This document shows, one piece after another, positions 32,495-47,683 of a stretch of DNA of 64,000 nt (its first letter is position 1; each line of letters opens with the position of its first letter). This DNA comes from an uncultured Kiritimatiellota bacterium (GTDB lineage: Bacteria > Verrucomicrobiota > Kiritimatiellia > RFP12 > UBA1067), in contig CAKTYZ010000003.1 of assembly GCA_934635225.1 (NCBI GenBank), positions 3,312 through 67,311 on the forward strand, given 5' to 3'. The translations under genes and the position numbers were made by a program. The notes under the pieces are model-generated. The model saw only the letters and a program-made list of their open reading frames with translations, made no database searches and was not told the origin of the DNA.

Positions 32495-32502
32495 CTCCGT
32501 AC

Positions 32503-34632
32503 TTATCTCAGGATCATCAGGAACGCTTCGCGCGGCACGCGGAGGCTGACCGTCCGCCGGTCGTCCGAGAGCGTGACCCGCGCGCGGGAGGCGTGTCGGC
32601 GCGCGGCGTCCTGGATCCTTTCCAGCGTCTTCTGCGAAATGCGGATGCGCCAGGTGTCGTTTCCGCCGGAATAGCGGAAAAGCGTCGTCTTCACGCCCGT
32701 CCGGCGCACGGCCGAGAAATCGAAGTCGAAGGCCGTGTCATCGCACAAGTGGAGCGCCTGGTTGGACGACTCGACAGGCGCGGTCGCGTAACCGCCCTCC
32801 GGGACCGCGAACGCGAACGTGCACCGGTTCGTGAAGTCGCCGCTGTTGCCGCCCGTGAGCATCAGCTTCGCTCTCGGCCCGAAGAACGAGAAGCGCGAGC
32901 CGCCATCCGTCTCCGAATCGTTCTGGTAATTGGGAAGAAGCGCGTTCGAGACGTGCAGCGTGCCGTTTGAGAGAACAAGTTCAGAATCCAGACCCGACAG
33001 CCGGACGATGGAGCAGGAGACCGATGAGTCCGTGCCGACCCACAGGCGGTTGCCGGCATTCCCCGATGAGCCGATCTCAATCCGGCTCGTCGCATTCGTG
33101 AAGGAACAGCCGTCCAGCCTGACCCAGTTGTTCGAGGCGCGCACGTCCTCGCGCCCAATCAGGATGTCTCCCGACACCTTGAGCGAGGCTCCGTCCGTCA
33201 CCTCGACATGGTTTCCTCGCGATCCCATGTGTCCGACGACAAGGGCGGCGCCCGACCCCGACCCAACCGTCACAACGGCATCGCGTCCGCGCACGACGAG
33301 GGCATTGTCAAAGCTCGGATAGAGCGCACCGCACCTAATGCGATTGTCACACTGAAGCGTGCCGCCCTCCAGGACCTCAAAGACATTTGAGGCCACGAGG
33401 CTCGTCAGGTAGAGCGGCATCTCCCTGTCGTCCGGATGACGCGCCGCCACGAACACGTTCGTCGCCGCAAGCGTCGCCCCGCCATCGACCGTGACGCGGT
33501 TCCAGAGCGACGTCACGCAGCTGTCGCCATATCCCTTGGCCTGGCCGCCCGCCGAGATCGTGTCCACGAAGGACACCGAATTGCTCGTGAAGTGAATCCG
33601 ATTGAAGAGGCCGTTCTGGCCGGCGGTCAGCGGTCGGTCAAAGCCCGAGTAGAAGTTGGAGAACGTCGTCCCCTCGCCGGCGACATACAGGAGATTCGAA
33701 TGCGAATAGCCGTCGCCCACGGCGAGAAGGATGTGGCCGCCCGCGGCATACGCGCCGTCCACGCCGCCCGCAAGGAACCGGGCGCCGCCGACCACGTCCA
33801 TGCGGTTGCCGTGGTTGGCGGATCCGTTCCCGCAACAGCCGATGTAGAACTGCTCCTGGGTGCCGTTCGGGCACATCGAAAGCGTCGCGTTCGAGACGCA
33901 CAGATACGCAGCGCCGCCATCGCGGTAGGCACTGAGGCCGCCGACGCCGAGGTAGCTCACGTTGGAGACGACCGCGCCGTCCGTGACGTACGCCTGCGAC
34001 CGAAAGCCCTGTCCGCCGACAAGAAGCTCGCTTTTGTTCGCGTCAAGCGACGACCCCTCGCCGCGGATGAAGACGCGGCAGTCGTTGCCGCGGCTGTGGA
34101 GACGACCGCGCATCGAGCCGCCGTCCGCAATCGTCAAATGACGCGTGCCGCCATCCTGGAAGTTCAGGTTGCCGACGAAGCGACCGCCGTTTTCAATGGA
34201 CATCGTGCAGCGCCGATAGGCGTTCCAGAACGTCACCTCCAGCGGATTGCCGTTCGTGTCCTCAAACGCGACCGTGCCGTTGCGGATGACGTTCGTGGCG
34301 TTGTTGTGGTCATGGTTGCTGTAGGGCTTCCGGAACGTCAGCGTGTGCCCGCCGAGGTCGAACGTTCGCCGACCGGCATTGCCCGCAAACCACCACGTGC
34401 CGGGGAAGTCGAGGTCGGCCGTCAGCGTCAGCGTGTAATCCGCCGACGGCTGCGCCTTGAAGCCCATCGCCTCGGACGCCTGCGTCGGACGCATCCCGCC
34501 CTCCCAGTTCGCGTCCGCCGACAGGTCTGTCGAGGCGACCCCCGTCCACCAGACGACCGTCGGATCACCCGCCAGCCCCGACACGGCGCCCAGCGCAACG
34601 CATCCGAAAAGAAGGAGAGCCGAAAGGTTCAT
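32503..34632 (-). CDS. Secreted beta-helix repeat protein (paralog of 10798-12858)
   Basis: Signal peptide MNLSALLLFGCVALGAVSGLAG, followed by repetitive GG/VSN/TL beta-strand repeats. The ATG at 34632 is the likely start, although the ORF track extends to a TTG at 34656 through a G11 tract. Confidence 0.55.
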   Translation of the reverse strand: MNLSALLLFGCVALGAVSGLAGDPTVVWWTGVASTDLSADANWEGGMRPTQASEAMGFKAQPSADYTLTLTADLDFPGTWWFAGNAGRRTFDLGGHTLTFRKPYSNHDHNNATNVIRNGTVAFEDTNGNPLEVTFWNAYRRCTMSIENGGRFVGNLNFQDGGTRHLTIADGGSMRGRLHSRGNDCRVFIRGEGSSLDANKSELLVGGQGFRSQAYVTDGAVVSNVSYLGVGGLSAYRDGGAAYLCVSNATLSMCPNGTQEQFYIGCCGNGSANHGNRMDVVGGARFLAGGVDGAYAAGGHILLAVGDGYSHSNLLYVAGEGTTFSNFYSGFDRPLTAGQNGLFNRIHFTSNSVSFVDTISAGGQAKGYGDSCVTSLWNRVTVDGGATLAATNVFVAARHPDDREMPLYLTSLVASNVFEVLEGGTLQCDNRIRCGALYPSFDNALVVRGRDAVVTVGSGSGAALVVGHMGSRGNHVEVTDGASLKVSGDILIGREDVRASNNWVRLDGCSFTNATSRIEIGSSGNAGNRLWVGTDSSVSCSIVRLSGLDSELVLSNGTLHVSNALLPNYQNDSETDGGSRFSFFGPRAKLMLTGGNSGDFTNRCTFAFAVPEGGYATAPVESSNQALHLCDDTAFDFDFSAVRRTGVKTTLFRYSGGNDTWRIRISQKTLERIQDAARRHASRARVTLSDDRRTVSLRVPREAFLMILR

Positions 34633-34633
34633 A

Positions 34634-34644
34634 CCCCCCCCCCC
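34634..34644. repeat. Homopolymeric C11 tract (G11 on the coding strand) ending 1 nt upstream of the beta-helix gene ATG, in the RBS position
   Basis: The minus strand reads aatataGGGGGGGGGGGtATGaacctt. Confidence 0.9.
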
Positions 34645-34751
34645 TATATTTAGCAAGAACAGCCTTGCGACAAACCGTTTTAATCATTTTTCTCATGTTC
34701 TTCTCTCCTTTTGCTTTCCTTTGTTTCTGCAAGCCGTTGTTGACGACACCG

Positions 34752-35909
34752 TCATTTGCACGTTATGGTCTTCTTGCGCTTATAGTCATAGCAAAGACAG
34801 TTCTTTTGTCGCAAGTACCGATCTGAATTGTTTCCGACCCGGACGATCTTTATCAGCTTGGAGTTCGTGTCAAACGTAACGAAGTTGAAGCTGTCCTGAC
34901 TTTTCGAGCCTCTGATTCGAACGGAGTCATTCCATTGCGAATTGAGACTGGCGTTCTCAAAGGCGATGCAATACTGGGCCGGATGCCCCTTGATGACGCC
35001 TTGATAGTCATAATGCGAATCTCCGTGCATCCAGCAGATGAAATCTCCTCCAGACGAAATAAAGGCATCCACCTCTTGAACGAACTTCATCATGCTGTGA
35101 CCGCCATTGTAAGGCTTTAAGTCAATGCTGTTGAAGGTGTTGTTCTCCGAATCCTGAATCACTTCAAACGGAAAATGCTTTGCGGCGACAACGGAGAGGC
35201 CTTTCTCCTTCGCGTCCGAAAGCGCCTGTGCAAACCAATGAAGCTGCTCGTCGCCCGTGTCTTTCGGAACGAACATGCAGTCCAGAACGATGAGCCTCAC
35301 CTTGGCCTCCGCATAGTCCTTGTAATACCAGCAAAAGCCCTTTTCCTCGGCATCAACGGGCTGGACGACGCCCCAGCTTCCTATATGGGGCTGAAAGTAC
35401 CTAACGTAAGACTCCTTCCCGGAATGATACGACCAGTCCGCCTCGCTCAGGCTGCTATTGAGGGTGTCGTGATTCCCGATGGTCTTCAGAATCTTTTCCG
35501 TGCCTTCAATGCCGTCCCAGAAGTCCATGGGGTCTGCAAACGAAGATGGAACCATATCGCCAAGGCAGAGCATGTCGTCGATGTAGCGCCCGTACTCACG
35601 CGAGAAGTCGACGTATCTCTTCAGGTTTTCCTTGCAGCCATGAATGTCCGTAAAGACAGACAGGGTGCAAAGCCGATGGGACAGGACCAGGTTGCTTGAA
35701 TAGGGCCTTGTCGACTGCAGGATGAGGTTCCCCACGGTCTGCCTGTCATTTAAGTGGAAGACGGAAGATTTCCCGTCGGCAAGATCGCCCGACAGGCCCG
35801 CCAGAGACGACGGCTTTCCGTCCGAAGCGCAGAGCGGCGCGGCGGCGAACGACGCCGTGCCGACGATAAACGACTTTCTCGTGACCTCGCTCATCTTTTC
35901 TATCGCCAT
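34752..35909 (-). CDS. Calcineurin-like metallophosphoesterase, probably secreted
   Basis: GDMV, GNHD and WMHGDSHYDY motifs. The N-terminus ...TRKSFIVGTASFAAAPLCAS resembles a Tat/Sec signal. GC is lower (~50%) than in the flanking genes. Confidence 0.7.
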   Translation of the reverse strand: MAIEKMSEVTRKSFIVGTASFAAAPLCASDGKPSSLAGLSGDLADGKSSVFHLNDRQTVGNLILQSTRPYSSNLVLSHRLCTLSVFTDIHGCKENLKRYVDFSREYGRYIDDMLCLGDMVPSSFADPMDFWDGIEGTEKILKTIGNHDTLNSSLSEADWSYHSGKESYVRYFQPHIGSWGVVQPVDAEEKGFCWYYKDYAEAKVRLIVLDCMFVPKDTGDEQLHWFAQALSDAKEKGLSVVAAKHFPFEVIQDSENNTFNSIDLKPYNGGHSMMKFVQEVDAFISSGGDFICWMHGDSHYDYQGVIKGHPAQYCIAFENASLNSQWNDSVRIRGSKSQDSFNFVTFDTNSKLIKIVRVGNNSDRYLRQKNCLCYDYKRKKTITCK

Positions 35910-35984
35910 GTTTCAGTTTCCTATATGCATTATACCATACATTCGATTTTTCCGTCAATCACGCCTCCGCACTGGGGCAGGGTC

Positions 35985-37712
35985 CTAAGAATTCTCAATC
36001 TTCAGCACGAACGGCAACGTCGCGTTCGCGAGGCGCGGCGGGAGGCGAACGACCATCTTCGTCCCGTCGCGGCGGGCAGACAAGGCCTCCGTCTCGCCGA
36101 GGGCTGTGACGCACGCGCCCGACGGGATTTCGCAGTCGAGCGCGATTTCCGCCGCCGGCTCCTTCACGATGGCGTAGATCGCCTTCCCGTCCTTCGCCCG
36201 CGTGTAATCGACGGCCGACGTCGAGAACGGCGCGACGATGCGCGTCGCGTAGATCGCCTCGCCGTTCTTCTCCAGCCAGCGTCCGATCGAGAGAAGCCGC
36301 GCCTCCTGCACCTCCGGAATCGCGCCTTGCGCGTCAAGATTGACGAGCAGGAGCAGGTTTCCGCCACGCGCGACGATGGACGTGAAATGGCAGATGAACT
36401 CCCCGTCCGTCATCACCATCGACGGATCAAGCTCCTCCATCCAGTGGTTGCCGTAGGCCTTCGAGATGCCGGAGCACGATTCCCACGGATGCCACGTCTT
36501 CGGGTCGATGTTCTCCGCCGTGTCGCCCCACTCGTCCGTGAAGAAGTCGCCGCGCACCGTCCGGCAGCCGATGAGCCGGATGCCCTTGCGCGCGAAGGCC
36601 GCCTCCTCGGACGGGTCGAGCCGCCCGTAGCGGTCGTTGCAGCAGACTTCCTTGCGTCCTTCCGCCTTGTTGTAGAAGTAGGCGGTTATGTCGTAGGATC
36701 CGTTCTCCGTCGCCCGCGTCGCCCAGTCCGCGTCGTACCAGAGGATGTCAGGGTCATACTTGTCGATGAACGCCGTCATCTGCGGCACGATGTACTCGCG
36801 GACGAAGTCCCGGACGGCGATTTTCCCGGACGACTTGCCCTCCATCTCCGGCGTGTAGTCTGCGACCTTGCCGCCCCAGACCTTCATCCGGATTGAGCCG
36901 TCGTCCTGAAGGATCGGATACTCCCATTCGTCCGCCTGCGAGTTGTAGACGCCGAACTTCAGCCCCTCGGCCCGCGCCGCGTCCGCCATCTCCCGCGCGA
37001 AGTCGCGCTTCGCTGGGCCGTCCGCCGAATTGCGGAACGTGAACGGATCGTCCCAGAGGCAGAAGCCCGAATGGTGCTTGAGGAACGGCACGACGTATTT
37101 CGCGCCGCACCGGCGGAAGACCTTCATCATCTTCGCCGCGTCGAACCGCTCGCCGCGAAAGAGGCCGATGAAATGGTCGGGCTTGAAGTCCGCGCCCCAG
37201 TTCTTGCGGTGATACGCCGCCGCGCTGTCGGCCGCCGCGTATTCGGGGCGGCACTTGTACTCGTACCAGTCCGGATAGAGCCGCGCCCCCTTCGCATACG
37301 GCGAGTAGGCGGCGACCGACCAAGGTCCCCAATCGACGAACATGCCGAGCTTCGCGTCGATGAACCATTCGGGGCAGGCGTGACGATCCATACCGGCGCC
37401 GGTCGCGGCGTATTTCCCGGCGCGATTGACGGCGTTCACCTTCTCCACCTGCGCCCGGGCGCGCGCGATCGTCTCCGCCGAATGGTCGCGGGCGATCTCC
37501 GGCAGCGTCTTCGGGAACGGCGGCGCCGGCTTCCAGCCCGGCGGACGGCGATACTTCGCAGGCGCAGTCGGCACGCCCCCCGCGACCGCCGACCGCCCCT
37601 TGAACTCGTCCGTGAACGCGGCGTTGTCCGCCGGGGCCAGCGTCGTGTCGGCCAGCGTCACCTGCGCCAGCACGCCAACGGACAAGGCGGCAAGAGGAAC
37701 GTCAATCATCAT
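35985..37712 (-). CDS. GH29 alpha-L-fucosidase (secreted)
   Basis: Signal peptide, then the GH29 motif AKLGMFVDWGPWSVAAY and ...YVVPFLKHHSGFCLWDD. The ATG overlaps the regulator's TGA as ATGA. Confidence 0.85.
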   Translation of the reverse strand: MMIDVPLAALSVGVLAQVTLADTTLAPADNAAFTDEFKGRSAVAGGVPTAPAKYRRPPGWKPAPPFPKTLPEIARDHSAETIARARAQVEKVNAVNRAGKYAATGAGMDRHACPEWFIDAKLGMFVDWGPWSVAAYSPYAKGARLYPDWYEYKCRPEYAAADSAAAYHRKNWGADFKPDHFIGLFRGERFDAAKMMKVFRRCGAKYVVPFLKHHSGFCLWDDPFTFRNSADGPAKRDFAREMADAARAEGLKFGVYNSQADEWEYPILQDDGSIRMKVWGGKVADYTPEMEGKSSGKIAVRDFVREYIVPQMTAFIDKYDPDILWYDADWATRATENGSYDITAYFYNKAEGRKEVCCNDRYGRLDPSEEAAFARKGIRLIGCRTVRGDFFTDEWGDTAENIDPKTWHPWESCSGISKAYGNHWMEELDPSMVMTDGEFICHFTSIVARGGNLLLLVNLDAQGAIPEVQEARLLSIGRWLEKNGEAIYATRIVAPFSTSAVDYTRAKDGKAIYAIVKEPAAEIALDCEIPSGACVTALGETEALSARRDGTKMVVRLPPRLANATLPFVLKIENS

Positions 37713-38869
37713 TTCTTCCCTTTCTTCTTCTGCTGTTTCGTTTTCGACTTCTTCAGCGACTGCGTCCGGGCCGCCGCGCCCTCGGGACGACGCGTCGAGG
37801 CGCGCACGACAAGGGGCGCCGGCAACAGGATCTCCGTCGGCGGCAGCGTCGGGTTCACGAGCCGCCGGAGGAGTCGGTCGAACGCGGTCTCGGCGATGAG
37901 GTCACACGGCTGGTGGATCGTCGTGAGCTGCGGCGTCATGACGCACGCCGTGCTCGTGTCGTCGAATCCCGCTAGAAGGATGTCGTCCGGCACGCGCAAC
38001 CCCAGCCCATCCAGCGTGTTCTTGAGGAGCGCCGCCGTGAGGTCCGTGCCGCAGACGATCGCGTCCGGCCTGTGCCGACGCAGGTACCGCCGAATCGCCG
38101 CCGCGTCTTCGGGCTGCGCATCGATCACGCCGCCCTCGGACGCGGCGCCCCTCATCCGCAGCGCGTTCATCACGCCGTTGACGCGCCGGTACATGTTCGC
38201 CGAGCGGTCGGCGTGCATCAGGAAGCGAATGTCCCGCGCGCCCGCCGCGAGCAGGTGTTCGGCGAGACGGCCACCGGCCGACTCGTTGTCGATGCCCACA
38301 AGGTCATAGTCGCTGCGGCGCGGCGGCTTCACGAAGTCGCAGTCGATCAGCACGACCGGCACCTGCGCGTCCGCGAAGACGGACAGGACCTCGCGATTGC
38401 ACGCCTCCGAGTCCGTCACGAACTCCAGCGGCTGATAGATGACGCCGGAAACGCCCTCGCGGACGATCGTCTCGGCGAACCGCTTCGCCTGCTCAACGCG
38501 GGCCGTCGCGCCCTTCGCGGAAACGTCGCCGAAGAGCAGCGTCCGCTCCGCCTTCTGCGCACAGCGCGAGACGCCGCTCACGAGGGCGGAGAAGAAGTCC
38601 GAGTAGGCGACGCCCGGCACGATAAGCCCGACGGGACCGGCGCCGCGCTGCGCACTCTTCGACAGGAACGTGCCCTTGCCGCGCCGCCGCACGAGGAAGC
38701 CCTTTGCGCTCAAGTCCTGCAGGGCCTGGGCGACGACCGAGCGCTTGACGCCAAAGCGCCGCGCGAGTCCACGTTCGCTCGGGAAGGGATTCGCCGCCGC
38801 GAGGTACTTTCCGCTAAGGATTTCCTTTCGCAGGGTCGTGATGATCAGGCTTGTCTCATTGGCTTTCAT
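37709..38869 (-). CDS. Transcriptional regulator with a GntR-type wHTH N-terminus fused to a LacI-like periplasmic-binding-fold sensor domain
   Basis: ...PFPSERGLARRFGVKRSVVAQALQDLSAKGFLVRRRGKGTFL is a GntR HTH. A LacI/PBP-like domain follows (GLIVPGVAYSDFF...), and the protein ends in a Lys-rich tail. It sits at the head of the glycan locus. Confidence 0.75.
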   Translation of the reverse strand: MKANETSLIITTLRKEILSGKYLAAANPFPSERGLARRFGVKRSVVAQALQDLSAKGFLVRRRGKGTFLSKSAQRGAGPVGLIVPGVAYSDFFSALVSGVSRCAQKAERTLLFGDVSAKGATARVEQAKRFAETIVREGVSGVIYQPLEFVTDSEACNREVLSVFADAQVPVVLIDCDFVKPPRRSDYDLVGIDNESAGGRLAEHLLAAGARDIRFLMHADRSANMYRRVNGVMNALRMRGAASEGGVIDAQPEDAAAIRRYLRRHRPDAIVCGTDLTAALLKNTLDGLGLRVPDDILLAGFDDTSTACVMTPQLTTIHQPCDLIAETAFDRLLRRLVNPTLPPTEILLPAPLVVRASTRRPEGAAARTQSLKKSKTKQQKKKGKK

Positions 38870-39068
38870 GGATTCCTTCTCCAGACTACAGTTCGTAGTA
38901 TAGCCGAAATCCTCTCCAGAATCCAGACTGGCCAGCCACTTTGTCAACGCGGCGAGAGGACAAGGAATTGTCTATTTGTGACGTATGCGGCGACGATCCC
39001 GCCAGAGTACGCGATGTGATAGTCCCGGTTGCCGCCGGGATTTGCGCTTGGCATTCTCGCCCCATGGC

Positions 39069-39290
39069 TCAGGGACCTACATTGCCGTCATCCGCCGCAG
39101 CTTGCTGCAGCTCCTTCCGGCAGAACCTCTTGGAAACGCCCATCGCGCAACGCCCCCGCGCCGGAACGGGCATGCAGCTGCGGTTCTCCACACGCTTCAG
39201 TCCCGACATGATCAGGACGGCGTATGCCCCGGTGCAGGTAAAGGCGCGGTCTTCCGCAATACGAACAAGGATATCGTTGTCATCGGCCAT
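39069..39290 (-). pseudogene. Truncated ASCH-domain gene copy (N-terminal 57 aa homologous to the 42711-43202 gene, then divergent)
   Basis: The stretch AFTCTGAYAVLIMSGLKRVENRSCMPVPARGRCAMGVSKRFCR is identical to the full ASCH gene. The GxKxxExR ASCH motif is present but the rest of the domain is missing. Confidence 0.6.
39118..39246. repeat. 129-bp direct repeat, copy A (128/129 identical to 43033-43161)
   Basis: Read directly from the sequence; there is a single mismatch (ctg/cta). Confidence 0.9.
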
Positions 39291-39293
39291 AAG

Positions 39294-39806
39294 CTACCTC
39301 CTAAAACCTATCAATTCACCTCCTTTGAGATAAATGGGGGCGCCCGGCTTGAAGTCGCCGCCTTTCTCGCGCTTGCGCTCCGCGATGAGCTGCGGCACGT
39401 CCAAGTCGCCAAGCGACACTTCCTCCTCCAGCACGTAGCAGTAGTAGTCGCACTGGGCGGAAGCGTAGCCCATCTTGATCATCTTGTCCTTCTCGCAGCG
39501 CATAATTGTTCGGCGCGTCTTCCCCAACTGTTGCGCGTAATGTTCGGCTCGCATGCCTGGATGTGCCTTTATGAGCGAAAGCAATCTGTTCCGATCATCA
39601 TTTACTGTGACATTTACTGTGCTAGTTACTGTGACACCACTTGATTTTGCCGTGACAGCCTTTGCCCTTGCTGTCTCATCCGATGTCATAGTATTTCTAT
39701 GGACATTCATCCTTACGGCGATGCCCGCATCTTCGACCACGACGGGGTTTATGCCATGCCATAATCGCGCAAGATGCCATTCACGCGGCGCAACCCACTG
39801 CCCCAC
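39294..39806 (-). CDS. Hypothetical protein with a C-terminal winged-HTH-like region; true start uncertain
   Basis: The C-terminus ...LLSLIKAHPGMRAEHYAQQLGKTRRTIMRCEKDKMIK is HTH-like. The N-terminal region contains VTVTSTVNVTV, encoded by TTACTGTGAC direct repeats. The gene is low GC. Confidence 0.35.
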   Translation of the reverse strand: MGQWVAPREWHLARLWHGINPVVVEDAGIAVRMNVHRNTMTSDETARAKAVTAKSSGVTVTSTVNVTVNDDRNRLLSLIKAHPGMRAEHYAQQLGKTRRTIMRCEKDKMIKMGYASAQCDYYCYVLEEEVSLGDLDVPQLIAERKREKGGDFKPGAPIYLKGGELIGFRR

Positions 39807-39839
39807 TCCTCATGTCTGTAGGTGGCACAAACGAAGTCT

Positions 39840-40460
39840 TTAGTCACTGTCCTTTGATTCATTTAGAAAACGTTTTCTATGATATGCCGCGATATCATTG
39901 ACAAGCGCATTTACTGTTCCCAATTCGGCATAATGCCATACCGACCATGAGTTCATAAATAATCCTGCCGGTGCTAACGGCAACCAACTAAGACATCTGA
40001 GTTCTTCTGCTTTTGCAGTAGAGTAGATGGGCTTCCTTTTTAATGACAAGACCGCAGACCCATCAAATGTACAGACTTCTCCTGTAGGCACAAGAAAGAA
40101 GGTATAGCCTGCCAATAAACCGACAGCCATTGAATCTTCTACCGTCATACCTGCTTGCCTAAACAAGAATGACACATGATATGAATCGTCGATAGTTCCT
40201 TTGCCATACAAAACCTCAGAGAAAAGACCTGTGGCTTTCAATCCCTCTTCAATCTTGTCCCTTAACTCTTGCATTTCAGGCGCGGCAATTATATCATTCC
40301 TGTCCAAATCCAGAATAACATCGTAGGAGATGGGAACTTTATCTTCGACCGAAATTCGCGTTTCAATGACGGGAGTATTATCCGTATACCCTGCATCCCA
40401 CATTATGCAACCCGAAAACAACACGGAGATTCCAATGCCGATGATAAGTTTACTTTTCAT
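39840..40460 (-). CDS. Lipoprotein (hypothetical)
   Basis: MKSKLIIGIGISVLFSGC lipobox; low GC. Confidence 0.5.
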   Translation of the reverse strand: MKSKLIIGIGISVLFSGCIMWDAGYTDNTPVIETRISVEDKVPISYDVILDLDRNDIIAAPEMQELRDKIEEGLKATGLFSEVLYGKGTIDDSYHVSFLFRQAGMTVEDSMAVGLLAGYTFFLVPTGEVCTFDGSAVLSLKRKPIYSTAKAEELRCLSWLPLAPAGLFMNSWSVWHYAELGTVNALVNDIAAYHRKRFLNESKDSD

Positions 40461-41256
40461 CTGTCACCTCCACTTCCTTGATGGCGCCCTCGTTCGCAAT
40501 AAACGGTGCGATATCTTTTCGCGTCATAATTGGCACTCCATTTATCGACTTTACCACTTGACCTCGCTTGACGCCGTGTTTTTCAGCCTGCGTTCCGTGC
40601 ACGACAGCAAGGACATGGACAACAGTTGGCGAATCGGCTTTCTCCGTTGGAAGTCGTTTTGGGATATGCCACACAATGCCGTATCGACCATTATAATCAA
40701 TCTTTTTGAAAAACATTGCATCATGTTGGTAAATACTCACTTCGCGCTGAACAGGGACGGCATTCAACGTTGTGGTAGTTGACGTTCCGGAATATGTCCC
40801 AGTCCCGTACACATAACCGCCTCTTCCGTATGCTGATGCATTTACAGAACCGCTATGATAAGTTTTAGCGTATGAAGGCAGAAACATCACTGATGTGTAT
40901 TGCTTGTTCTCCTTGAATCGAACATCCAAAAGGACGAGTGCGGCATTGTGTTTTTCAGCCGTATCGATTGCACAGGAAAAAGGACAATACGGACTGTTAA
41001 AGGAACTGTGACCGATAGCCACATATCCATCTTCCATCAGACGGAGTACATCTTCTTCGGTCGTGACCGTCTTAAGAATCACAGGTGCATCACCATGAAC
41101 AGACTGTAGTGCCCTGTCTCTTTCGGAATCAGTATAGAACTTCTCATAATTGTTGGCTATGCACCCAGAAAGAACAATCAAAAGGCATATCGATGCGGTT
41201 GTCCGACTGATGCATTCCCATAAAGACATATTAAAGAGCATTCTTTTAGTATTCAT
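40450..41256 (-). CDS. Lipoprotein with a C-terminal PDZ-like domain
   Basis: The lipobox LIVLSGC is followed at the C-terminus by ...VVHGTQAEKHGVKRGQVVKSINGVPIMTRKDIAPFI, which is PDZ-like. The gene overlaps the previous lipoprotein gene by 11 nt. Confidence 0.5.
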   Translation of the reverse strand: MNTKRMLFNMSLWECISRTTASICLLIVLSGCIANNYEKFYTDSERDRALQSVHGDAPVILKTVTTEEDVLRLMEDGYVAIGHSSFNSPYCPFSCAIDTAEKHNAALVLLDVRFKENKQYTSVMFLPSYAKTYHSGSVNASAYGRGGYVYGTGTYSGTSTTTTLNAVPVQREVSIYQHDAMFFKKIDYNGRYGIVWHIPKRLPTEKADSPTVVHVLAVVHGTQAEKHGVKRGQVVKSINGVPIMTRKDIAPFIANEGAIKEVEVTDEK

Positions 41257-41335
41257 TCGTGGTCTCTTTTTAGTTGCTCAAATCGCTCCACCGCCTCTTC
41301 GCTCACCTTGTACGGCGGGATGTACTTTTCGGAAC

Positions 41336-41680
41336 TCATTGCCCGACCCCTCTTGTTTCTGTCTTCCAATAATGTTTTGCTGAATGCACAACCGCGACCT
41401 CGATTCCGTCTATTATAGCAAGACGTTCTGCTAGACGCTCTGCGAAATACACGGATCGGTGCTGTCCCCCGGTGCAGCCGAAGGCGACTTGAAGATGATC
41501 GCGGCCATCTCGCTTGTATTGTTCTATCGATTGGCGAACAAGCGTCTCGGTCGCCTCAAGGAACGGCTCGACAGTCTTTGGGAAGCGGGCGAAGAAGTCA
41601 CAGACGGGATTGTCGCGCCCCGTGTAGCCGCGTAGTGTCTCGTCCCAGAATGGGTTAGGCATGGCCCGGCAATCGAACAC
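41336..41680 (-). pseudogene. rapZ: C-terminal fragment of rapZ (RNase adaptor RapZ/YhbJ). The N-terminal P-loop half is missing and only 125 nt remain before the next gene.
   Basis: ...CRAMPNPFWDETLRGYTGRDNPV...LQVAFGCTGGQHRSVYFAERLAERL matches RapZ residues ~155-284 (LPNPHW...GCTGGKHRSV). Confidence 0.6.
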
Positions 41681-41805
41681 GAAGCCCCCTCCATTACCGG
41701 TGGGGGTCTTCCGGCAAGCCGCGCTTAAAGGAGAATGATATGACGGTGATGGTCATATGGAATTCACTTCGGCAAGCTGCATATTTACGACGTCGGAAAT
41801 CTTGT

Positions 41806-42711
41806 TCACCTATGGCTCTCCGATTCAGGCGGCTTATCATCGTCAGTCTCGTAGTAGTATGAATAATCAATGCCTTTCATGAACATCTCCCGATCGGCGA
41901 TTTTACTGGTTAGGGCGGGTCGGAGGAGTTGCTTGAGTGGCTTGCTGTCCGAGACGCTTGTTCGCATTGCGGAAAGGTATGTCTTCTTGTCCACCTTGCT
42001 CCAGTCGATGCATCGCTTGAGAGAGCGTTTCAGCATAAGGTCGAGCCAGATGCGCGTGGCGCGTCCATTCCCCTCCATGAACGGGTGCGCTACGTTCATT
42101 TCAACATACTTGTCGATTATCTCTTCGAACGCGTTTTCGGGCATGGCCTCAATTGTCGCGAGCGTTGTCGGGAAGTGCATACAGTTGGCGAATGTGAAGC
42201 CGCCCTTGGAAATGTTCTTCGTCCTGACCTGTCCTGCGAAGTCGTATAGACCGCCGAAGATGTATCCATGAATCTGCCGCAGGCACTTCACGCTTCCCGG
42301 TTCAAGGCTGGACAAGAGATCGCTCTCGAAAAGCGCATACGCCTTATGGCGCGATTTACCGTCAATGGTGTTGTCGGAGTAGAGGAACCAGTCGAGAAAT
42401 GCCGTTGCCCGTTCATTTGGGATTTTCTTTGCAAGCGCGACAACGCCGTCTGCATCCACGACGTCGGAAAGATAGGACTTGCCGTCCGCCGCTTTCAGCT
42501 TCAGTTGGGTAGTGGCGCTAACCAGCTCGTCGTCCGTCCGTTTCAGCTTCGCCTTGAGGAATTTCCAGTAGTTTCGTGCTTTGGCATATTCAGGTTCATT
42601 GTTGATGGCGGCAATGACATCAAGAACAGAGAACCGCCACTTTGCGGCGGCATCATCCCAGATCGCCCGCACCTCGCGGTCATTGTAGAAACGGATGGAA
42701 GATTTATGCAT
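41806..42711 (-). CDS. Fic/Doc family protein with an N-terminal Bro-N/KilA-N-like domain
   Basis: Fic motif HPFMEGNGRATRIWLDLMLKR. The N-terminus IRFYNDREVRAIWDDAAAKWRFSVLDVIAAI is Bro-N-like. There is an AGGAG RBS, and the ATG shares one nt with the ASCH gene's TGA (TGATG). Confidence 0.8.
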   Translation of the reverse strand: MHKSSIRFYNDREVRAIWDDAAAKWRFSVLDVIAAINNEPEYAKARNYWKFLKAKLKRTDDELVSATTQLKLKAADGKSYLSDVVDADGVVALAKKIPNERATAFLDWFLYSDNTIDGKSRHKAYALFESDLLSSLEPGSVKCLRQIHGYIFGGLYDFAGQVRTKNISKGGFTFANCMHFPTTLATIEAMPENAFEEIIDKYVEMNVAHPFMEGNGRATRIWLDLMLKRSLKRCIDWSKVDKKTYLSAMRTSVSDSKPLKQLLRPALTSKIADREMFMKGIDYSYYYETDDDKPPESESHR

Positions 42712-43202
42712 CAGTCAGCTCCTAATTGCGCATTTACTGCACCAGAAACATCTTCCGGCAGCCGCCACATTCCGACATTGCCGCGACAGGGAATGGGAGC
42801 AGGCAACTTGCGAATGTTCGAGAGTAGCCACCAGTAGCGGTAGCCTTCATTCCAAAACTGCGCCTGAACCCGCCAAGGTTCTTCTTCGGGTTCTGCATCT
42901 ATCGCCTGGTAGTCCATCACCGCGACGATGTGGCCCGGCCAACAGCTCGCCTCTTCCCATGTCGGGACGATGGCATCCACCCTGTCGCCGTTTAATCGCC
43001 GCAACCACGCTTTGATGCCGTCATACTCGGCGCGGCAGAACCTCTTGGAAACGCCCATCGCGCAACGCCCCCGCGCCGGAACGGGCATGCAGCTACGGTT
43101 CTCCACACGCTTCAGTCCCGACATGATCAGGACGGCGTATGCCCCGGTGCAGGTAAAGGCGTTGACGATTGGCATAAGTTCAATTAAGAAGATACCCTGC
43201 AA
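42711..43202 (-). CDS. ASCH-domain protein (full length, 163 aa), translationally coupled to the downstream Fic gene
   Basis: The GLKRVENR segment fits the ASCH GxKxxExR motif, and the protein has the expected ~110-aa beta-barrel length plus an extension. Confidence 0.6.
   Translation of the reverse strand: MQGIFLIELMPIVNAFTCTGAYAVLIMSGLKRVENRSCMPVPARGRCAMGVSKRFCRAEYDGIKAWLRRLNGDRVDAIVPTWEEASCWPGHIVAVMDYQAIDAEPEEEPWRVQAQFWNEGYRYWWLLSNIRKLPAPIPCRGNVGMWRLPEDVSGAVNAQLGAD
43033..43161. repeat. 129-bp direct repeat, copy B (inside the 5' part of the ASCH gene)
   Basis: Read directly from the sequence; matches 39118-39246. Confidence 0.9.
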
Positions 43203-43235
43203 TGATTGGAAGAGCCGATAGGCACTCGCGGATGA

Positions 43236-43664
43236 TCAAATGAGAGACAATTCTACCATGGACACAAAGCCTGTGTTTCCAGCACAATCAGATGTGCCAA
43301 GGATTAAATGATCGATAAGCGGTACGCCCATAAGGTCTGCCGCCTCGCGCAGTTTCGTTGTCGCCGCGATGTCCGCCTTGCTGGGCGTGAGGTCGCCCGA
43401 GGGATGGTTGTGCGCGACGATGATTTCCTCCGCGCCGGCTTTCAGCGCCTCGCGGAAGATTGCGCCCGCGTCAATTGTTGCCGTGCCGTCCTTGTGCCCG
43501 ACGGAAACAAGAATCGGCTTGGCAAGTGCCTTGCCGTTGCCGTCCAGCGGCAGGACGAACACACGCTCCTCCTTCTGCTCCTTCGGCAACGCGGCGCGGA
43601 ACATCGCGTCAGCGTCAGCGGGGGTTTCGACGCAGCACTTTTCTAACAAACCTTTATGCCTCAT
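43236..43664 (-). CDS. RadC-like JAB/MPN domain protein
   Basis: ...EIIVAHNHPSGDLTPSKADIAATTKLREAADLMGVPLIDHLILG is the JAMM motif. The start was set at the internal Met (MRHKGLL) because the long ORF overlaps the upstream gene. Confidence 0.75.
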   Translation of the reverse strand: MRHKGLLEKCCVETPADADAMFRAALPKEQKEERVFVLPLDGNGKALAKPILVSVGHKDGTATIDAGAIFREALKAGAEEIIVAHNHPSGDLTPSKADIAATTKLREAADLMGVPLIDHLILGTSDCAGNTGFVSMVELSLI

Positions 43665-43977
43665 AGTGAAACACCTGGTAATTCTCGACATTGCGTTTGT
43701 TGATTGTGAAGCAATCATGTTTTTGTAAAAACTTGGCGATGTCTGCTTCGCATGGAAAAGCATGATGTTCAAGATAGAACGACCTGAAGTCTTGCTTCAG
43801 CAACTTAGCAAGAGTCATTTCAAACTCACCTTTCCAGGACAAACCCATTTTTGCCAAATCAACAACAAACTCGATTTCTCGACTAGTTCCTGAGGCTTCA
43901 AGACATGCAAATACACGAATAGTGTCCTTGCTACCGCGTACTTTTTGCACATCCCCTATGACTGCATCGGTTATCAT
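43654..43977 (-). CDS. Hypothetical 107-aa protein, overlapping and co-oriented with the RadC-like gene
   Basis: The ORF overlaps the radC-like start by 11 nt; low GC; no recognisable motif. Confidence 0.4.
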   Translation of the reverse strand: MITDAVIGDVQKVRGSKDTIRVFACLEASGTSREIEFVVDLAKMGLSWKGEFEMTLAKLLKQDFRSFYLEHHAFPCEADIAKFLQKHDCFTINKRNVENYQVFHYEA

Positions 43978-43986
43978 TGTTTTTCT

Positions 43987-45027
43987 CTAGGGTCTTGAAA
44001 AATCCATGACATAGTTCTCGTCGTCTAGTTTATAGAACTTTACTTCCGTTCGGCCATATCTTTTCAAGTCGGAAACAGAAATATATGCGCCATTCGGCAA
44101 CCCCAACCTTTGGCGAAAATAGCGGCCAATCTCAGAATTGTCCTGTGGTGTTTCTATACCTTTACCATTAGCCTGAGCACGAACACAGGTAAAGATTCTG
44201 TCATCGTCAGTAAGGACAGTGAAGCGATGCTTGACATCTGGAAAAAAACCTGAGCGTTGAAGCGACGCCGGAAGTCCAATGTACGACTGGTTAGGGTCGC
44301 GTTTGCTTACCGACCCATTTCCATTCGTCGATGTCCTCGGCTTCCCATCAGGGCGGACTCCCCAATTTAAGCGCGACCCGTTGCCAGCGTCTCCCTTGGT
44401 TGTGAGCAACGACAAAACAACCATTTCGTGATTGTAGAACGGCGAAGTTTTATCCGTTTCTATCTTAACAGCTTCAGAGGATTTGGCTATTAGCGATGTA
44501 GCATGAGATTTTGTTGAGAAATCCTTATCTCTATTTGCCTTGTCGCATAAGATGGTCTTTTTCTTTACCTCCTCAAAGAAATCAAATGCCGTTGAAGGAT
44601 CGCATTCAGCAAGCGTCTCTCTCCGACTTGGAAGATGGAAGCCTGATTCTGAGTAGTTGGCAGAACCGATGAATGCCTGTACGGGCTTGTCGCCTTTGCA
44701 CCAAACATACACCTTAGAATGCACTGACGACGGCTTTCTCACATACGAACAAGTGAAGTCGCCATTGTATGCGAACTCCTTATGTTGTTCAAGAGAGATA
44801 AAGCCAAGATGGTTTATTTTGCTAACACCATCAGAACCCGCCATGCCATATATCAAATCAACAGATAGACTCTTCTTCCGAGATGTGCTTTCTATCAAAT
44901 GCCGCGCCGCCATCGCATGAGTAGCGTAACCTGAAACAATCTTGATTGAATTGGGTGCATCGCTTCTGAAGAGCGGCTTGATAAGCGCATACTCAAAAAG
45001 TTCATCGTCAACTACAGTTCCAAACAT
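43987..45027 (-). CDS. PLD-family (HxK...GSxN) nuclease, a likely Type II restriction endonuclease of the NgoFVII/BfiI type
   Basis: The HSKVYVW...IGSANYSESGF motif is present. The gene lies 29 nt downstream of a C5-MTase gene and is very low GC. Confidence 0.6.
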   Translation of the reverse strand: MFGTVVDDELFEYALIKPLFRSDAPNSIKIVSGYATHAMAARHLIESTSRKKSLSVDLIYGMAGSDGVSKINHLGFISLEQHKEFAYNGDFTCSYVRKPSSVHSKVYVWCKGDKPVQAFIGSANYSESGFHLPSRRETLAECDPSTAFDFFEEVKKKTILCDKANRDKDFSTKSHATSLIAKSSEAVKIETDKTSPFYNHEMVVLSLLTTKGDAGNGSRLNWGVRPDGKPRTSTNGNGSVSKRDPNQSYIGLPASLQRSGFFPDVKHRFTVLTDDDRIFTCVRAQANGKGIETPQDNSEIGRYFRQRLGLPNGAYISVSDLKRYGRTEVKFYKLDDENYVMDFSRP

Positions 45028-45056
45028 AGGCCTCCTTCGCGGATTGTCATCTGCTT

Positions 45057-46793
45057 CTATTTTAAGACTCCTTCGTCAGAAATGTTACACTCAACATGTT
45101 CATAGGCAATGCCCGCAAGAGTACGAAGCAATGCCTCAAAGATGATTTGCGCACCTCTAGGAGGCACTGCCATACCTATTTGTTTCCGCACACTTTCTTT
45201 ACTGCCTGTAAAGAGATAGTCATCAGGGAATGTCTGCAACCGTGCTCGTTCGCGATTTGTTAGCGCACGCGGCTCTGCGTAATGGTAGATATGAGTACCG
45301 CCACCGCCTGATCCAGTAACTGTATAAGCAGGCTTATCTGGATCGAGGCGCTTATAAATTTGGCTGATTTTAGCGCCTTTTACATTAAGTTGAAGGTGAG
45401 GCGGCAGATTTGCCGTGAATGCGTTTTCTCCAGGCCGTATATACTGCAAGCGTTCTACGACAACGGAACTTTGCGCCGTTCGCGTATTGTTAGGAGCATT
45501 TGGAGGTATGGGAGGATTCTCCAATGCGGCTCTCGCAGAATTGTCCCTCGGCATGATTGAGACTGGGCTGGGCGGAAAGAACGCAAAAGGCAAGTCTTCC
45601 CTTATGCCGATTATGATTATCCTGTGGCGCGTTTGCGGCACGCCGTAATCCTCAAACTTGTAAAGATGAGGATAGATGCGATACCCCGCCTCCTTCATGC
45701 TCGAAAGAATCTTTTTGAGTGCCGCGCCTTCGTTTGCGCTGGCAAGACCACCTACATTCTCGGCAAAGAACCAAAGCGGATTGAACTTGCGAAGCACGGC
45801 AACGCCATATTGATATAATGGGCCGTAGTTTCCGTCAATACCTTTATGTTCGCCTACGACCGAAAAATCATTACACGGGAAACCAAAGGCGAAACCGTCT
45901 ATGCTCGTCAGACGCTTGTCATCCAAGTCTATCTTGCGCACATCATCGCATATAACAGAAGCAGGAGAATCTGGACAGATGTTCTCCGCATAAGTCTTGC
46001 AGGTCTGTTGGTCGTAGTCATTCGACCATGCATGAACAATCTTAAAGTTCTGATTCTCGATCGTCGCATTAAGCGCACCACACGCAAGGCCGCCTGGTCC
46101 GCAAAAGAACTCCCCCATACGATATGGTTGACCATTGGGCGTGCCGGGCATTAAGGCATGGTTGTATTCTGCACGACACTCGTTATCAACATAGTCTATT
46201 GGTTCCGTTCTTGGCACATGGTGTTGTTCTGGGTACATCATTGACAGAAAAGTAAACTGATACGCCGCCTCGCACACGCGCAGCTGTTCGGGGCGCAGTT
46301 TCGTGACGACTTCCGGCAGACGTTTCGCGAGGTCGGGGTCGGCGCGGTCAGGCGACTCGAGGTACGCCTTGAGCTGCTTGCGCACTTTGGGCGCGGTCGC
46401 GAAGTCCGCCGTGCGGACGATGACGCGCGCCGCGTCTTCCGGCGGCGTCAACTTGTGCTGATACTTGAGCTTCGTCTTGAAGAGCAGGTACTTCTCGCCG
46501 TGCGCCCTGCCCTTCGCAGGGTAGCCGTAGTCGCGCACCAGCTCTTCGCGGGTCTTGACGCCGACGAACTCCGCCTTGTACGTCCTCTGCTCCTTCGAGC
46601 CCTTGAAGAGCCACAGCTCCGCGATCGACGCGGCGTCGGCCTCGGCGATCTTGTCGTCGTCCGAAATGGGGTAGTTGTACCAGCCGCGCCACTTCGCCAG
46701 CTGGTCGCCCTTGTAGGTGCCGACGAGGACAACCCTGCCGCGCTGTCCGTCATCCGTCGTCCCTTGCGTTTTCTTCTGCTTTCTCGTTGCCAC
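45057..46793 (-). CDS. DNA (cytosine-5)-methyltransferase with a ~184-aa N-terminal extension of different base composition
   Basis: Motif I FFCGPGGLACG, motif IV GFPCNDFS and an ENV motif. The ORF begins with GTG. GC switches abruptly from ~65% to ~45% at ~46240, where an in-frame MMYPEQ could be the true MTase start. Confidence 0.8.
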   Translation of the reverse strand: MATRKQKKTQGTTDDGQRGRVVLVGTYKGDQLAKWRGWYNYPISDDDKIAEADAASIAELWLFKGSKEQRTYKAEFVGVKTREELVRDYGYPAKGRAHGEKYLLFKTKLKYQHKLTPPEDAARVIVRTADFATAPKVRKQLKAYLESPDRADPDLAKRLPEVVTKLRPEQLRVCEAAYQFTFLSMMYPEQHHVPRTEPIDYVDNECRAEYNHALMPGTPNGQPYRMGEFFCGPGGLACGALNATIENQNFKIVHAWSNDYDQQTCKTYAENICPDSPASVICDDVRKIDLDDKRLTSIDGFAFGFPCNDFSVVGEHKGIDGNYGPLYQYGVAVLRKFNPLWFFAENVGGLASANEGAALKKILSSMKEAGYRIYPHLYKFEDYGVPQTRHRIIIIGIREDLPFAFFPPSPVSIMPRDNSARAALENPPIPPNAPNNTRTAQSSVVVERLQYIRPGENAFTANLPPHLQLNVKGAKISQIYKRLDPDKPAYTVTGSGGGGTHIYHYAEPRALTNRERARLQTFPDDYLFTGSKESVRKQIGMAVPPRGAQIIFEALLRTLAGIAYEHVECNISDEGVLK

Positions 46794-46815
46794 TTTCTCC
46801 GTCTCCCTGAATCGC

Positions 46816-47415
46816 TCAACTTGCGCGGCCCTGCCGCTTCGACTTGCGCCTTCGCGCCCCGCCCTTCGTCCGCGTCCCGTCAGGCCGACGCGCGAACTCC
46901 GCGCATTCCGCGTCGGTCAGAAGCCCCTTCCCGTTGGCCACATGGGCGGCGTCGCGCAGGCGGGCGGGCCCAATCGCGCCATCGGCTCTCGCCGTCCGCA
47001 TCGCCTCGACGAGCCGCTGGCACTTTATGCCCTCGAAGCCCTCGTATTCGACGACTTCACATGGCCGGTTGCAAGCGAGCCGACAGTACTTGGGAAGCCT
47101 GCGCCTCACCCGCCTCGGCGTCCCCAAGTAGACGAACGGCGGACTCGCCGGCGTCAGGCCGAGCATCTGCACGACCGAAGCGCCGCGCAGATACGCGCCC
47201 TCCCCCGCAACGGCGACAGACGCGGCGTAGCGGTCGTTCCGGCCAACCACATGGTGCTTGACCTGGTAAACGCCGTGCCCGAGACGCATCAGGCGACCGC
47301 TGCGCTCCATGGCGACAAGACATTGGCGTGAAACGCCAAGACCCTTCGCTTTCGCGGAGGTGATGATGCCGTAGTTGCCTTCGGCAACGCCCCAAAGTAC
47401 GTCGTATGCGCTCAT
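46816..47415 (-). CDS. AbiEi-like antitoxin N-terminal domain protein (winged-HTH transcription-regulator fold)
   Basis: ...GIITSAKAKGLGVSRQCLVAMERSGRLMRLGHGVYQV fits the AbiEi_4 N-terminal pattern. The start was set at MSAYD, which has a TATAAT box ~13 nt upstream. There is no adjacent AbiEii-type nucleotidyltransferase. Confidence 0.5.
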   Translation of the reverse strand: MSAYDVLWGVAEGNYGIITSAKAKGLGVSRQCLVAMERSGRLMRLGHGVYQVKHHVVGRNDRYAASVAVAGEGAYLRGASVVQMLGLTPASPPFVYLGTPRRVRRRLPKYCRLACNRPCEVVEYEGFEGIKCQRLVEAMRTARADGAIGPARLRDAAHVANGKGLLTDAECAEFARRPDGTRTKGGARRRKSKRQGRAS

Positions 47416-47426
47416 GACAGTGCCGT

Positions 47427-47432
47427 GCATTA
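47427..47432 (-). promoter_or_regulatory. Perfect TATAAT -10 box immediately upstream of the AbiEi-like start
   Basis: The minus strand reads catggTATAATgcacggcactgtcATGagc. Coordinates are +/-2. Confidence 0.35.
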
Positions 47433-47683
47433 TACCATGAGCAGGGCCTGAAAGGCAATGGCGGACGGGCATGGGATTCCGCCGCCGCGCCCGAACGGAC
47501 GCGGAGGCGGAATCGATCAGAGCGTGATCCCGACGCCGGAACCCAAGATGGAGCAGCCTCCCGACAGCGACACGACGCTGCCGCCGAGAACCGCGAGCAG
47601 GACGGGCCTGAGCGCGTCCCACAGCATCTTCGCGAGCCGATCCCAATTTATCATCTTCCGTTTCATTTTCCTCGCACCTTCCC

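Follow-up and report, generated by a model that had tools for sequence, protein, structure and literature searches.

Ectopic gene conversion (concerted evolution) operates between dispersed bacterial paralogs, for example the tuf genes, rRNA genes, and pairs of silent and expressed cassettes. Defense-island hotspots, known from the pan-genomes of E. coli, Pseudomonas, and Vibrio, have conserved border genes and turn over their cassettes by homologous recombination in the flanks. Standalone ASCH proteins occur beside restriction-modification systems and are predicted to bind modified DNA; for the most part they accompany type I systems and GNAT-EVE operons (Bell, Wolf and Koonin 2020, PMC7641849). 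The locus considered here is a pair of 129-bp direct repeats, one in an intact and one in a truncated ASCH gene, within a composite phage-defense island of an uncultured Kiritimatiellota bacterium from the human gut; the stretch analyzed, called the window below, comprises 64,000 nucleotides (contig CAKTYZ010000003.1 of GenBank assembly GCA_934635225.1). The repeat appears to be the sole stretch still common to two tandem ASCH paralogs, kept alike by intragenomic homologous exchange (gene conversion) and not created by site-specific integration; comparison of sequences gives this reading a probability of roughly 0.6. As a new instance of a known process, the feature represents an ordinary mechanism in a setting that has been little studied, and the repeat does not mark an excisable mobile element.

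Pairwise alignment and a repeat finder identify one direct repeat family with two copies, A and B, of 129 nt each; their coordinates are collected in Table 1 with those of the other features. The copies are identical at 128 of 129 positions and have a start-to-start spacing of 3915 nt. When the two regions are aligned pairwise, the flanks are unalignable on either side; the first-pass annotation of this DNA had described them as diverged. Both copies lie on the minus strand, as does every gene of the repeat region, and are read in an identical frame; the sole mismatch, at core position 66 in gene orientation (C in copy A, T in copy B), is synonymous. The earlier description of the two genes also stands: copy B belongs to an intact ASCH gene (gene B) that is translationally coupled to a Fic gene, its stop overlapping the Fic start, and the gene around copy A is truncated. 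The added contrast between a high-GC pseudogene and a lower-GC gene is marginal (G+C content, GC, of 0.617 versus 0.591 for the two open reading frames, ORFs), because the core is itself GC-rich. The DNA between the repeats does have a low GC, 0.50 against 0.66–0.67 in the surrounding host genome, but the entire low-GC island spans ~39.4–46.2 kb and extends well past copy B.

The relatives with which the copies were compared are 133 fetched loci, labeled L001–L133. At core position 119 both window copies carry G (Arg), whereas all 27 other core haplotypes, from dozens of loci, carry A (Lys); A is also the base in the nearest relatives of the flanks, which are L072 for the truncated ORF (A′) and L054 and L057 for gene B. 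At position 106 both copies have G, an allele found in only 3 of the 27 other haplotypes. The copies differ from each other by one base and from the nearest relative of their own flanks by 2–5. A Lys-to-Arg change present in both copies and absent from the 27 other haplotypes points to gene conversion or to a recent common origin within the genome, and it upholds the claim that the repeat is not a matter of two ancient paralogs, the near-identity having come about by recombination or gene conversion. At position 66, copy A has C like L072 and copy B has T like L054 and L057, both alleles being common in the family. Outside the core the two genes are of different mosaic types, upstream ('MPIVN' versus an HD-gene fusion) as well as downstream ('AEYDG' versus 'KEY'); the edges of the repeat therefore mark where homology stops and not a cutting site.

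The simplest course of events would be a new Lys-to-Arg substitution that appeared in one copy and then passed to the other through a short conversion tract; alternatively at this step, both cores would descend from one recent sequence of this lineage. The C/T difference at position 66 would be an old family polymorphism that was left unconverted. The proposal of a crossover between a host and an island-borne homolog keeps its recombination or gene conversion but loses its partners: the scar around copy A is made of pieces of an island operon and copy B stands beside RadC and restriction-modification genes in a methylase-NgoFVII-RadC-ASCH module, so both copies are in island DNA. Codon positions across the family likewise suggest exchange. 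In mid-distance relatives (n = 9) DNA identity to gene B is 87.5% in the core and 57% in the rest of the gene, with third-position values of 0.77 and 0.63, respectively; in far relatives (n = 53) the identities are 65% and 53% and the third-position values 0.53 and 0.58. Because far relatives lack a third-position excess in the core, the excess at mid distance is attributed to exchange and not to constraint at the DNA level.

Several points weigh against gene conversion as a full account of the locus. Conversion does not explain how the two-copy layout arose, and its direction, tract length, and number of events would have to be deduced from one lineage-specific substitution and one shared minority allele (position 106). 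L072 and L032 show a circular permutation of the layout, which fits tandem duplication or a circular intermediate too. No empty site or single-copy relative was found among related metagenome-assembled genomes (MAGs), regulator- or RadC-bearing contigs, or in a metagenome scan; three regulator-bearing MAGs (GTDB genomes) have another neighborhood. Strain haplotypes at position 66 comprise (T,C), (C,C), and (T,T); L022 has (C,C), as has L030 with L037 from sample ERZ28614275, while (T,T) belongs to L023, and one (C,C)/(T,T) contig differs from the window at that single base over 14 kb; the fully phased (C,C)/(T,T) cases all come from one assembly pipeline, could be caused by bubble-popping in a collapsed repeat, and are not counted as evidence of ongoing conversion.

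Copy A lies in the scar of an island operon. ORF A′ is made up of 15 HD-gene codons (39247–39290), 43 codons of the ASCH core, 'KE' (39112–39117), and read-through. Its N-terminus matches the start of a 406-aa HD protein in L074 at 13 of 15 residues, and the adjacent remnant a is 93% identical to residues 687–755 of the 755-aa ORF of that locus; elsewhere (L074, L015) the operon consists of the 755-aa gene, the 406-aa HD gene, and the ASCH gene. Since A′ starts as the HD protein does and remnant a corresponds to the C-terminal end of a 755-aa protein, the fused allele is a deletion fusion, and remnant a accompanies it in 21 loci. That the long N-terminus is a natural variant was rejected, as it is the first 15 HD-gene codons fused by deletion. 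Upstream of the 69-codon remnant, positions 39504–39806 hold a repetitive 'VTVTSTVNVTVN' stretch and a helix-turn-helix-like segment; both are foreign to the 755-aa protein, so the 86-aa gene called here is itself chimeric.

At its other end the scar can be compared with L072, which is 98.9% identical to window positions 39759–39112 and then continues as a full ASCH gene of 167 aa; the post-core part of that gene ('KEYESL...') is the other C-terminal type, with ~64% protein identity to B. The scar retains the 'KE' of the L072 type, and the gene was therefore broken at 39111/39112, six bases past the repeat end; the first-pass annotation was right about the truncation, but the break does not fall at the repeat edge, 39118. 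Its further claim, that the repeat was created by duplication of the 5′ region of the gene, fails, as copy A has both another 5′ end (the HD-gene fusion) and another 3′ continuation than copy B. An uninterrupted allele in L001, L006–L014, L057–L066, and L071 matches 39811–39118, then 43161–42745, and is followed by a RapZ remnant; in L057–L065 the upstream match covers at least 39504–39118. The DNA at 38943–39111, beyond the break, has no match by BLAST in the 133 loci, save a leader-like motif from 38942 on, and the 28 nt to the right of the break gave 0 matches in the metagenome scan; it is probably the native region upstream of the regulator.

At least 10 gut-metagenome assemblies, independent of one another, share the two-copy layout at 99.8–100% identity. 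The 73-aa product, Fic, RadC, and the regulator, when looked up exactly, each return 12–22 contigs, built by different assemblers from many human-gut metagenomes (Hadza and other cohorts). Gene order is constant in all sufficiently long contigs: AbiEi-like gene, C5 methyltransferase, NgoFVII-type endonuclease, 107-aa gene, RadC, ASCH gene B, Fic, RapZ fragment, PDZ lipoprotein, lipoprotein, 86-aa gene, 73-aa scar, GntR/LacI regulator, and fucosidase. No deletion form occurs among 22 regulator-bearing and 19 RadC-bearing contigs. The two-copy layout appears to be fixed in a population.

An assembly artifact, either a repeat collapsed or duplicated or a two-strain chimera, would be the simplest dismissal of the pair and has next to no chance of being correct. 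Many contigs from other samples break within the core, which could be taken in its favor but is also what a repeat would predict; contigs from a variety of samples and assemblers run through both copies into flanks that are unique. Among these, MEGAHIT contig k141_256608 (L021) is 100% identical to window positions 29069–47559, and since its k of 141 exceeds 129 and other assemblers and samples agree with it, the repeat is no artifact of the kind the first-pass annotation had allowed for. Scarcely more probable is a site-specific system, in which the repeats would be attachment (att) sites of an integrase-mobilized island, or part of a diversity-generating (template repeat/variable repeat, TR/VR) or phase-variation cassette system. 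Direct repeats bracketing low-GC DNA would suit such a system, as would the 5′ gene fragments that recur upstream of cassettes in L088, L106, and L117, but the fragment ends vary from locus to locus (after codons ~22, 27, 46, 59), leaving no fixed crossover site. Pfam, NCBIfam, and PADLOC scans of all ORFs at 34.7–54 kb and the precomputed Pfam matches of called genes contain no integrase or transposase; there is no invertase nearby and no reverse transcriptase in or around the island. Members of the ASCH family are absent from IMG/VR viral contigs, and no near match to the island turned up when plasmid and phage records were searched by megablast. The mismatch is C/T and not adenine-specific, the repeat lies at the 5′ end of its gene, and copy A has no sequence diversity to donate. 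The diversity-generating and phase-variation readings were both rejected. Nor do the repeats lie at borders between element and host: copy B has island genes on both sides, and homology with related genomes starts at 38942, 176 bp past copy A. L032 and L072 do have permuted junctions, but with diverged (L032) or fold-back (L072) ends. An attL/attR pair bracketing an inserted 3.8-kb segment, as originally suggested, is not supported, given the missing integrase or transposase, repeat edges that are homology ends, and bracketed DNA that is a patchwork.

Two further explanations concern the history of the alleles themselves. If there had been no intragenomic exchange, two related alleles would have come independently with two island modules, their identity due to closeness of clade (~97% at the DNA level) and purifying selection. 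Cores of other genomes are in fact 125–127/129 identical to the window copies, and no other protein segment is as conserved across the family as the core; the explanation is improbable, however, in view of G119 and the rare G106, of copies that are closer to each other than to the nearest relatives of their flanks, and of the sequence directly after the core, which is of two types ~60–70% identical. Less improbable, though still doubtful, is a single structural event, in which a circular unit of ~3–3.9 kb (ASCH 3′ part, Fic, RapZ′, two lipoprotein genes, remnant a, and fused N-terminus) would have integrated by one RecA-driven crossover in the core of a resident truncated ASCH gene, or unequal crossing-over would have left a trimmed tandem array; the repeats would then be recombinant joints, attL/attR-like but RecA-driven, which is what the first-pass annotation mainly proposed, without its host gene. 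Contigs with the uninterrupted gene have fused N-terminus, core, and B-type C-terminus contiguous and then the RapZ remnant, an arrangement of which the window is a circular permutation. L072 has exactly one unit's sequence (~2966 bp without Fic, i.e., 3915 minus 945), its ASCH gene running into RapZ′-PDZ-lipoprotein, and in L032 a complete gene of the fused type lies upstream of Fic, with a fused-type core again at the other end. A single crossover, however, leaves its partners unhomogenized, and both parents would have needed the lineage-specific G119 beforehand. The presumed target (type-2 N-terminus, core, 'KE', cut at 39112) was not seen in regulator- or RadC-bearing contigs or in the metagenome scan, the two ends of L032 that carry remnant a and the N-terminus differ by ~5% and hence form no simple circle, and the L072 end is a fold-back that makes its topology ambiguous. 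The unit contains no replication or recombination gene, and A′ continues after the core with the C-terminal type of L072, not of B. The window layout fits an old tandem duplication, homologous integration of a circle, or two near-identical scar copies collapsed into a cycle by short reads; a crossover or duplication origin is compatible with later conversion.

The fold-back of L072 occupies its positions 2607–2997: beyond window position 40085 the contig resumes at 39761 and runs back, on the opposite strand, up to 40118. It is either an assembly artifact or a rearrangement in that strain; an invertible segment was rejected as its cause, since the window has no flanking inverted repeats.

The proposed gene conversion between the two cores has a wider setting in the turnover of cassettes around ASCH genes. 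At one host locus upstream of a TPR gene, a border of ASCH and RapZ remnant is joined to at least four upstream cargo sets (23 loci), which include SIR2-HerA, Schlafen-like, HD, and RadC modules. In L032 the window's Fic-to-scar segment is preceded by a different upstream copy of the fused type, with four core differences. In L088, L106, and L117 a cassette separates the full gene from a 5′ gene fragment located 0.8–2 kb upstream of it. The fragment is 93–94% identical to the full copy and ends after codon ~46, ~27, and ~22, respectively; such varied ends speak against any fixed recombination site. A restriction-modification system precedes the fragment in L088 and L117. The Fic cassette shows a like habit at the ASCH 3′ end, being inserted within it with a diverged copy of the tail downstream. 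The ASCH core may serve as a homologous patch that lets islands swap alleles and upstream cassettes with one another.

The ASCH label of gene B holds at the level of the predicted fold, as the first-pass annotation had assumed. Copy B lies in a 163-aa ORF (42711–43202) with a TTG start, and gene callers use an internal ATG, which is probably the true start and gives 154 aa; exact look-up of the longer ORF found no match because the gene is called from the internal ATG. The AlphaFold model of gene B has a predicted local distance difference test score (pLDDT) of 90 and a predicted template modeling score (pTM) of 0.84, and its best Foldseek match is the ASCH domain of TRIP4 (expect value, E, 7.5e-9; template modeling score, TM, 0.73), followed by EOLA1/CXorf40A and a Zymomonas ASCH protein. 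A profile of 41 sequences searched against the PDB had the ASCH domains of TRIP4 and EOLA1 as sole meaningful matches, full length but with marginal E of 1.5e-3 to 0.06. Among curated models, neither copy matches Pfam ASCH, even at E<=10, and gene B has no NCBIfam or PADLOC match.

More than 500 relatives of the family occur in metagenomes from gut and rumen; it adjoins RadC in ~50 loci, downstream of a C5 methyltransferase and a variable endonuclease. The block of C5 methyltransferase (often with the same ~190-aa N-terminal extension), variable type II endonuclease, ASCH, and RadC is found in these gut and rumen loci (L081–L133), and ASCH-RadC fusions of ~280 aa exist (P0108–P0120). In the paper collection searched, no article names both ASCH and RadC.

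The segment between the repeats is a patchwork of the ASCH 3′ part, the Fic cassette, a RapZ fragment, two lipoprotein genes, and the scar (Table 1). The Fic cassette measures 945 bp (~41800–42744), is inserted in the ASCH 3′ end, and supplies the ASCH gene with a new 13-residue tail; it is absent between ASCH and the RapZ remnant in L001, L006–L014, and L072. The NCBIfam RapZ model is matched by the RapZ fragment over residues 180–275 only. A C-terminal fragment of RapZ (RNase adapter) or a shorter remnant also follows ASCH genes in L001, L006–L017, L054–L067, and L075, which are unrelated islands, and it looks like part of a travelling unit or of an old insertion site. Both lipoprotein-like genes have 100% protein identity in L072.

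Table 1. Features of the repeat pair, the bracketed segment, and the adjoining island (window coordinates).
Feature	Position	Strand	Remarks
DNA without match	38943..39111	.	~170 bp separating the A′ break from the onset of homology to related genomes
Pseudogene ORF A′, 73 aa	39069..39290	-	HD N-terminus, ASCH core, 'KE', and unrelated read-through
Repeat copy A	39118..39246	-	same core as copy B, within the truncated ASCH scar
Remnant a, last 69 codons of a 755-aa island protein	39294..39503	-	called as a gene of 69–86 aa
Two low-GC lipoprotein-like genes	39840..41256	-	206 aa, 39840–40460; 268 aa with PDZ, 40450–41256
RapZ C-terminal-domain fragment, 114 aa	41336..41680	-	Pfam PapZ_C, E 2.7e-29
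Diverged remnant of ASCH 3′ tail	41753..41799	-	alignable to the final 47 nt of the ASCH gene in L072; downstream of Fic
Fic-domain gene, candidate defense type PDC-S04	41806..42711	-	Pfam Fic; PADLOC PDC-S04, E 3.6e-160, full length
Intact ASCH-fold gene B, 154 aa from ATG ('MPIVNAF')	42711..43175	-	called as 154 aa in independent contigs
Repeat copy B	43033..43161	-	conserved 5′ core, codons ~6–48 of the intact ASCH gene
RadC-like JAB-domain gene	43236..43664	-	conserved neighbor or fusion partner of the ASCH family; synteny in ~50 loci
NgoFVII-family endonuclease (type II restriction-modification)	43987..45027	-	Pfam/PADLOC scans
C5 cytosine methyltransferase with N-terminal extension (type II restriction-modification)	45057..46793	-	Pfam/PADLOC scans

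Homology with three related Kiritimatiellaeota MAGs is limited to the regulator and the fucosidase (window 35996–38942). A motif of ~50 nt (TGACAAAGTGGCTGGCCAGTCTGGATTCTGGAGAGG...) at 38886–38942, upstream of the regulator, is also present ahead of other genes in related MAGs (L003, 9921–9977 and 13005–13061; L004, 9930–9986, 14242–14289, and 18289–18335) and may be a shared promoter or leader element; an Rfam scan of 38.5–47.8 kb found no RNA family. On the far side of the island, an AbiEi antitoxin-like gene (46816–47415; PADLOC AbiEi, E 1.9e-37) has host-like GC and no adjoining AbiEii partner. Between the fucosidase and a large surface-protein gene lies a lower-GC gene (34752–35909; GC 0.525, 385 aa, no Pfam match) that is probably another acquired gene.

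By itself the repeat is an ordinary by-product of paralog recombination in a defense island. The locus as a whole provides a worked example, from a poorly studied gut phylum, of a defense island rebuilt piece by piece: a Fic cassette was placed in the tail of a gene, an operon was cut to a three-piece scar, and upstream modules were swapped with breakpoints in one small gene. A broader proposal, advanced tentatively and with the odds against it, is that the ASCH core is a portable homology patch for recombinase-free gain, stacking, and swapping of cassettes in gut and rumen defense islands of the Kiritimatiellia type, and that methylase-endonuclease-ASCH-RadC is an undescribed accessory layout of type II restriction-modification in which ASCH possibly reads methylated DNA. 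If so, homologous or homology-facilitated illegitimate recombination would be at work, its traces would be mosaic ASCH alleles and 5′ fragments beside added cassettes, and the window's repeat pair would be one such trace. The ASCH core as a repeated seam of cassette turnover and the methylase-ASCH-RadC block are both worth following; the recurring methyltransferase-ASCH-RadC association could guide work on the roles of ASCH and RadC beside restriction-modification.

Compared with the known systems, the pair resembles ectopic gene conversion in having two copies per genome, a short near-identical tract with abrupt edges, and a derived substitution common to both copies only. It differs in that one partner is a dead scar, so that nothing functional is maintained or diversified, and in that the tract is held to 129 bp by flanks of different gene mosaics; the conversion itself is read from sequence. 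With Campbell-type or attL/attR junctions the locus shares direct repeats around foreign DNA, one in an intact gene and one in a partial copy. Here, however, no integrase is found, the repeat greatly exceeds typical att cores in length, the intact copy has the partial one downstream of it and beside the host, copy B has island DNA in both flanks, and no empty site or circle was found.

As in defense-island hotspots, a downstream context that stays constant (ASCH, RapZ remnant, TPR gene) occurs with at least four upstream cargo sets, restriction-modification included; the border here is itself an island gene, small and carried along with the methylase and RadC, and the breakpoints fall within the ASCH gene, leaving 5′ fragments and mosaic alleles. 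Gene B has the same fold as described ASCH/PUA-like proteins (PMC7641849; TRIP4 ASCH-dsDNA structures 8yfi, 8yfj), but its partners differ from theirs in being a C5 methyltransferase, variable type II endonucleases, and RadC, to which ASCH is in some cases fused.

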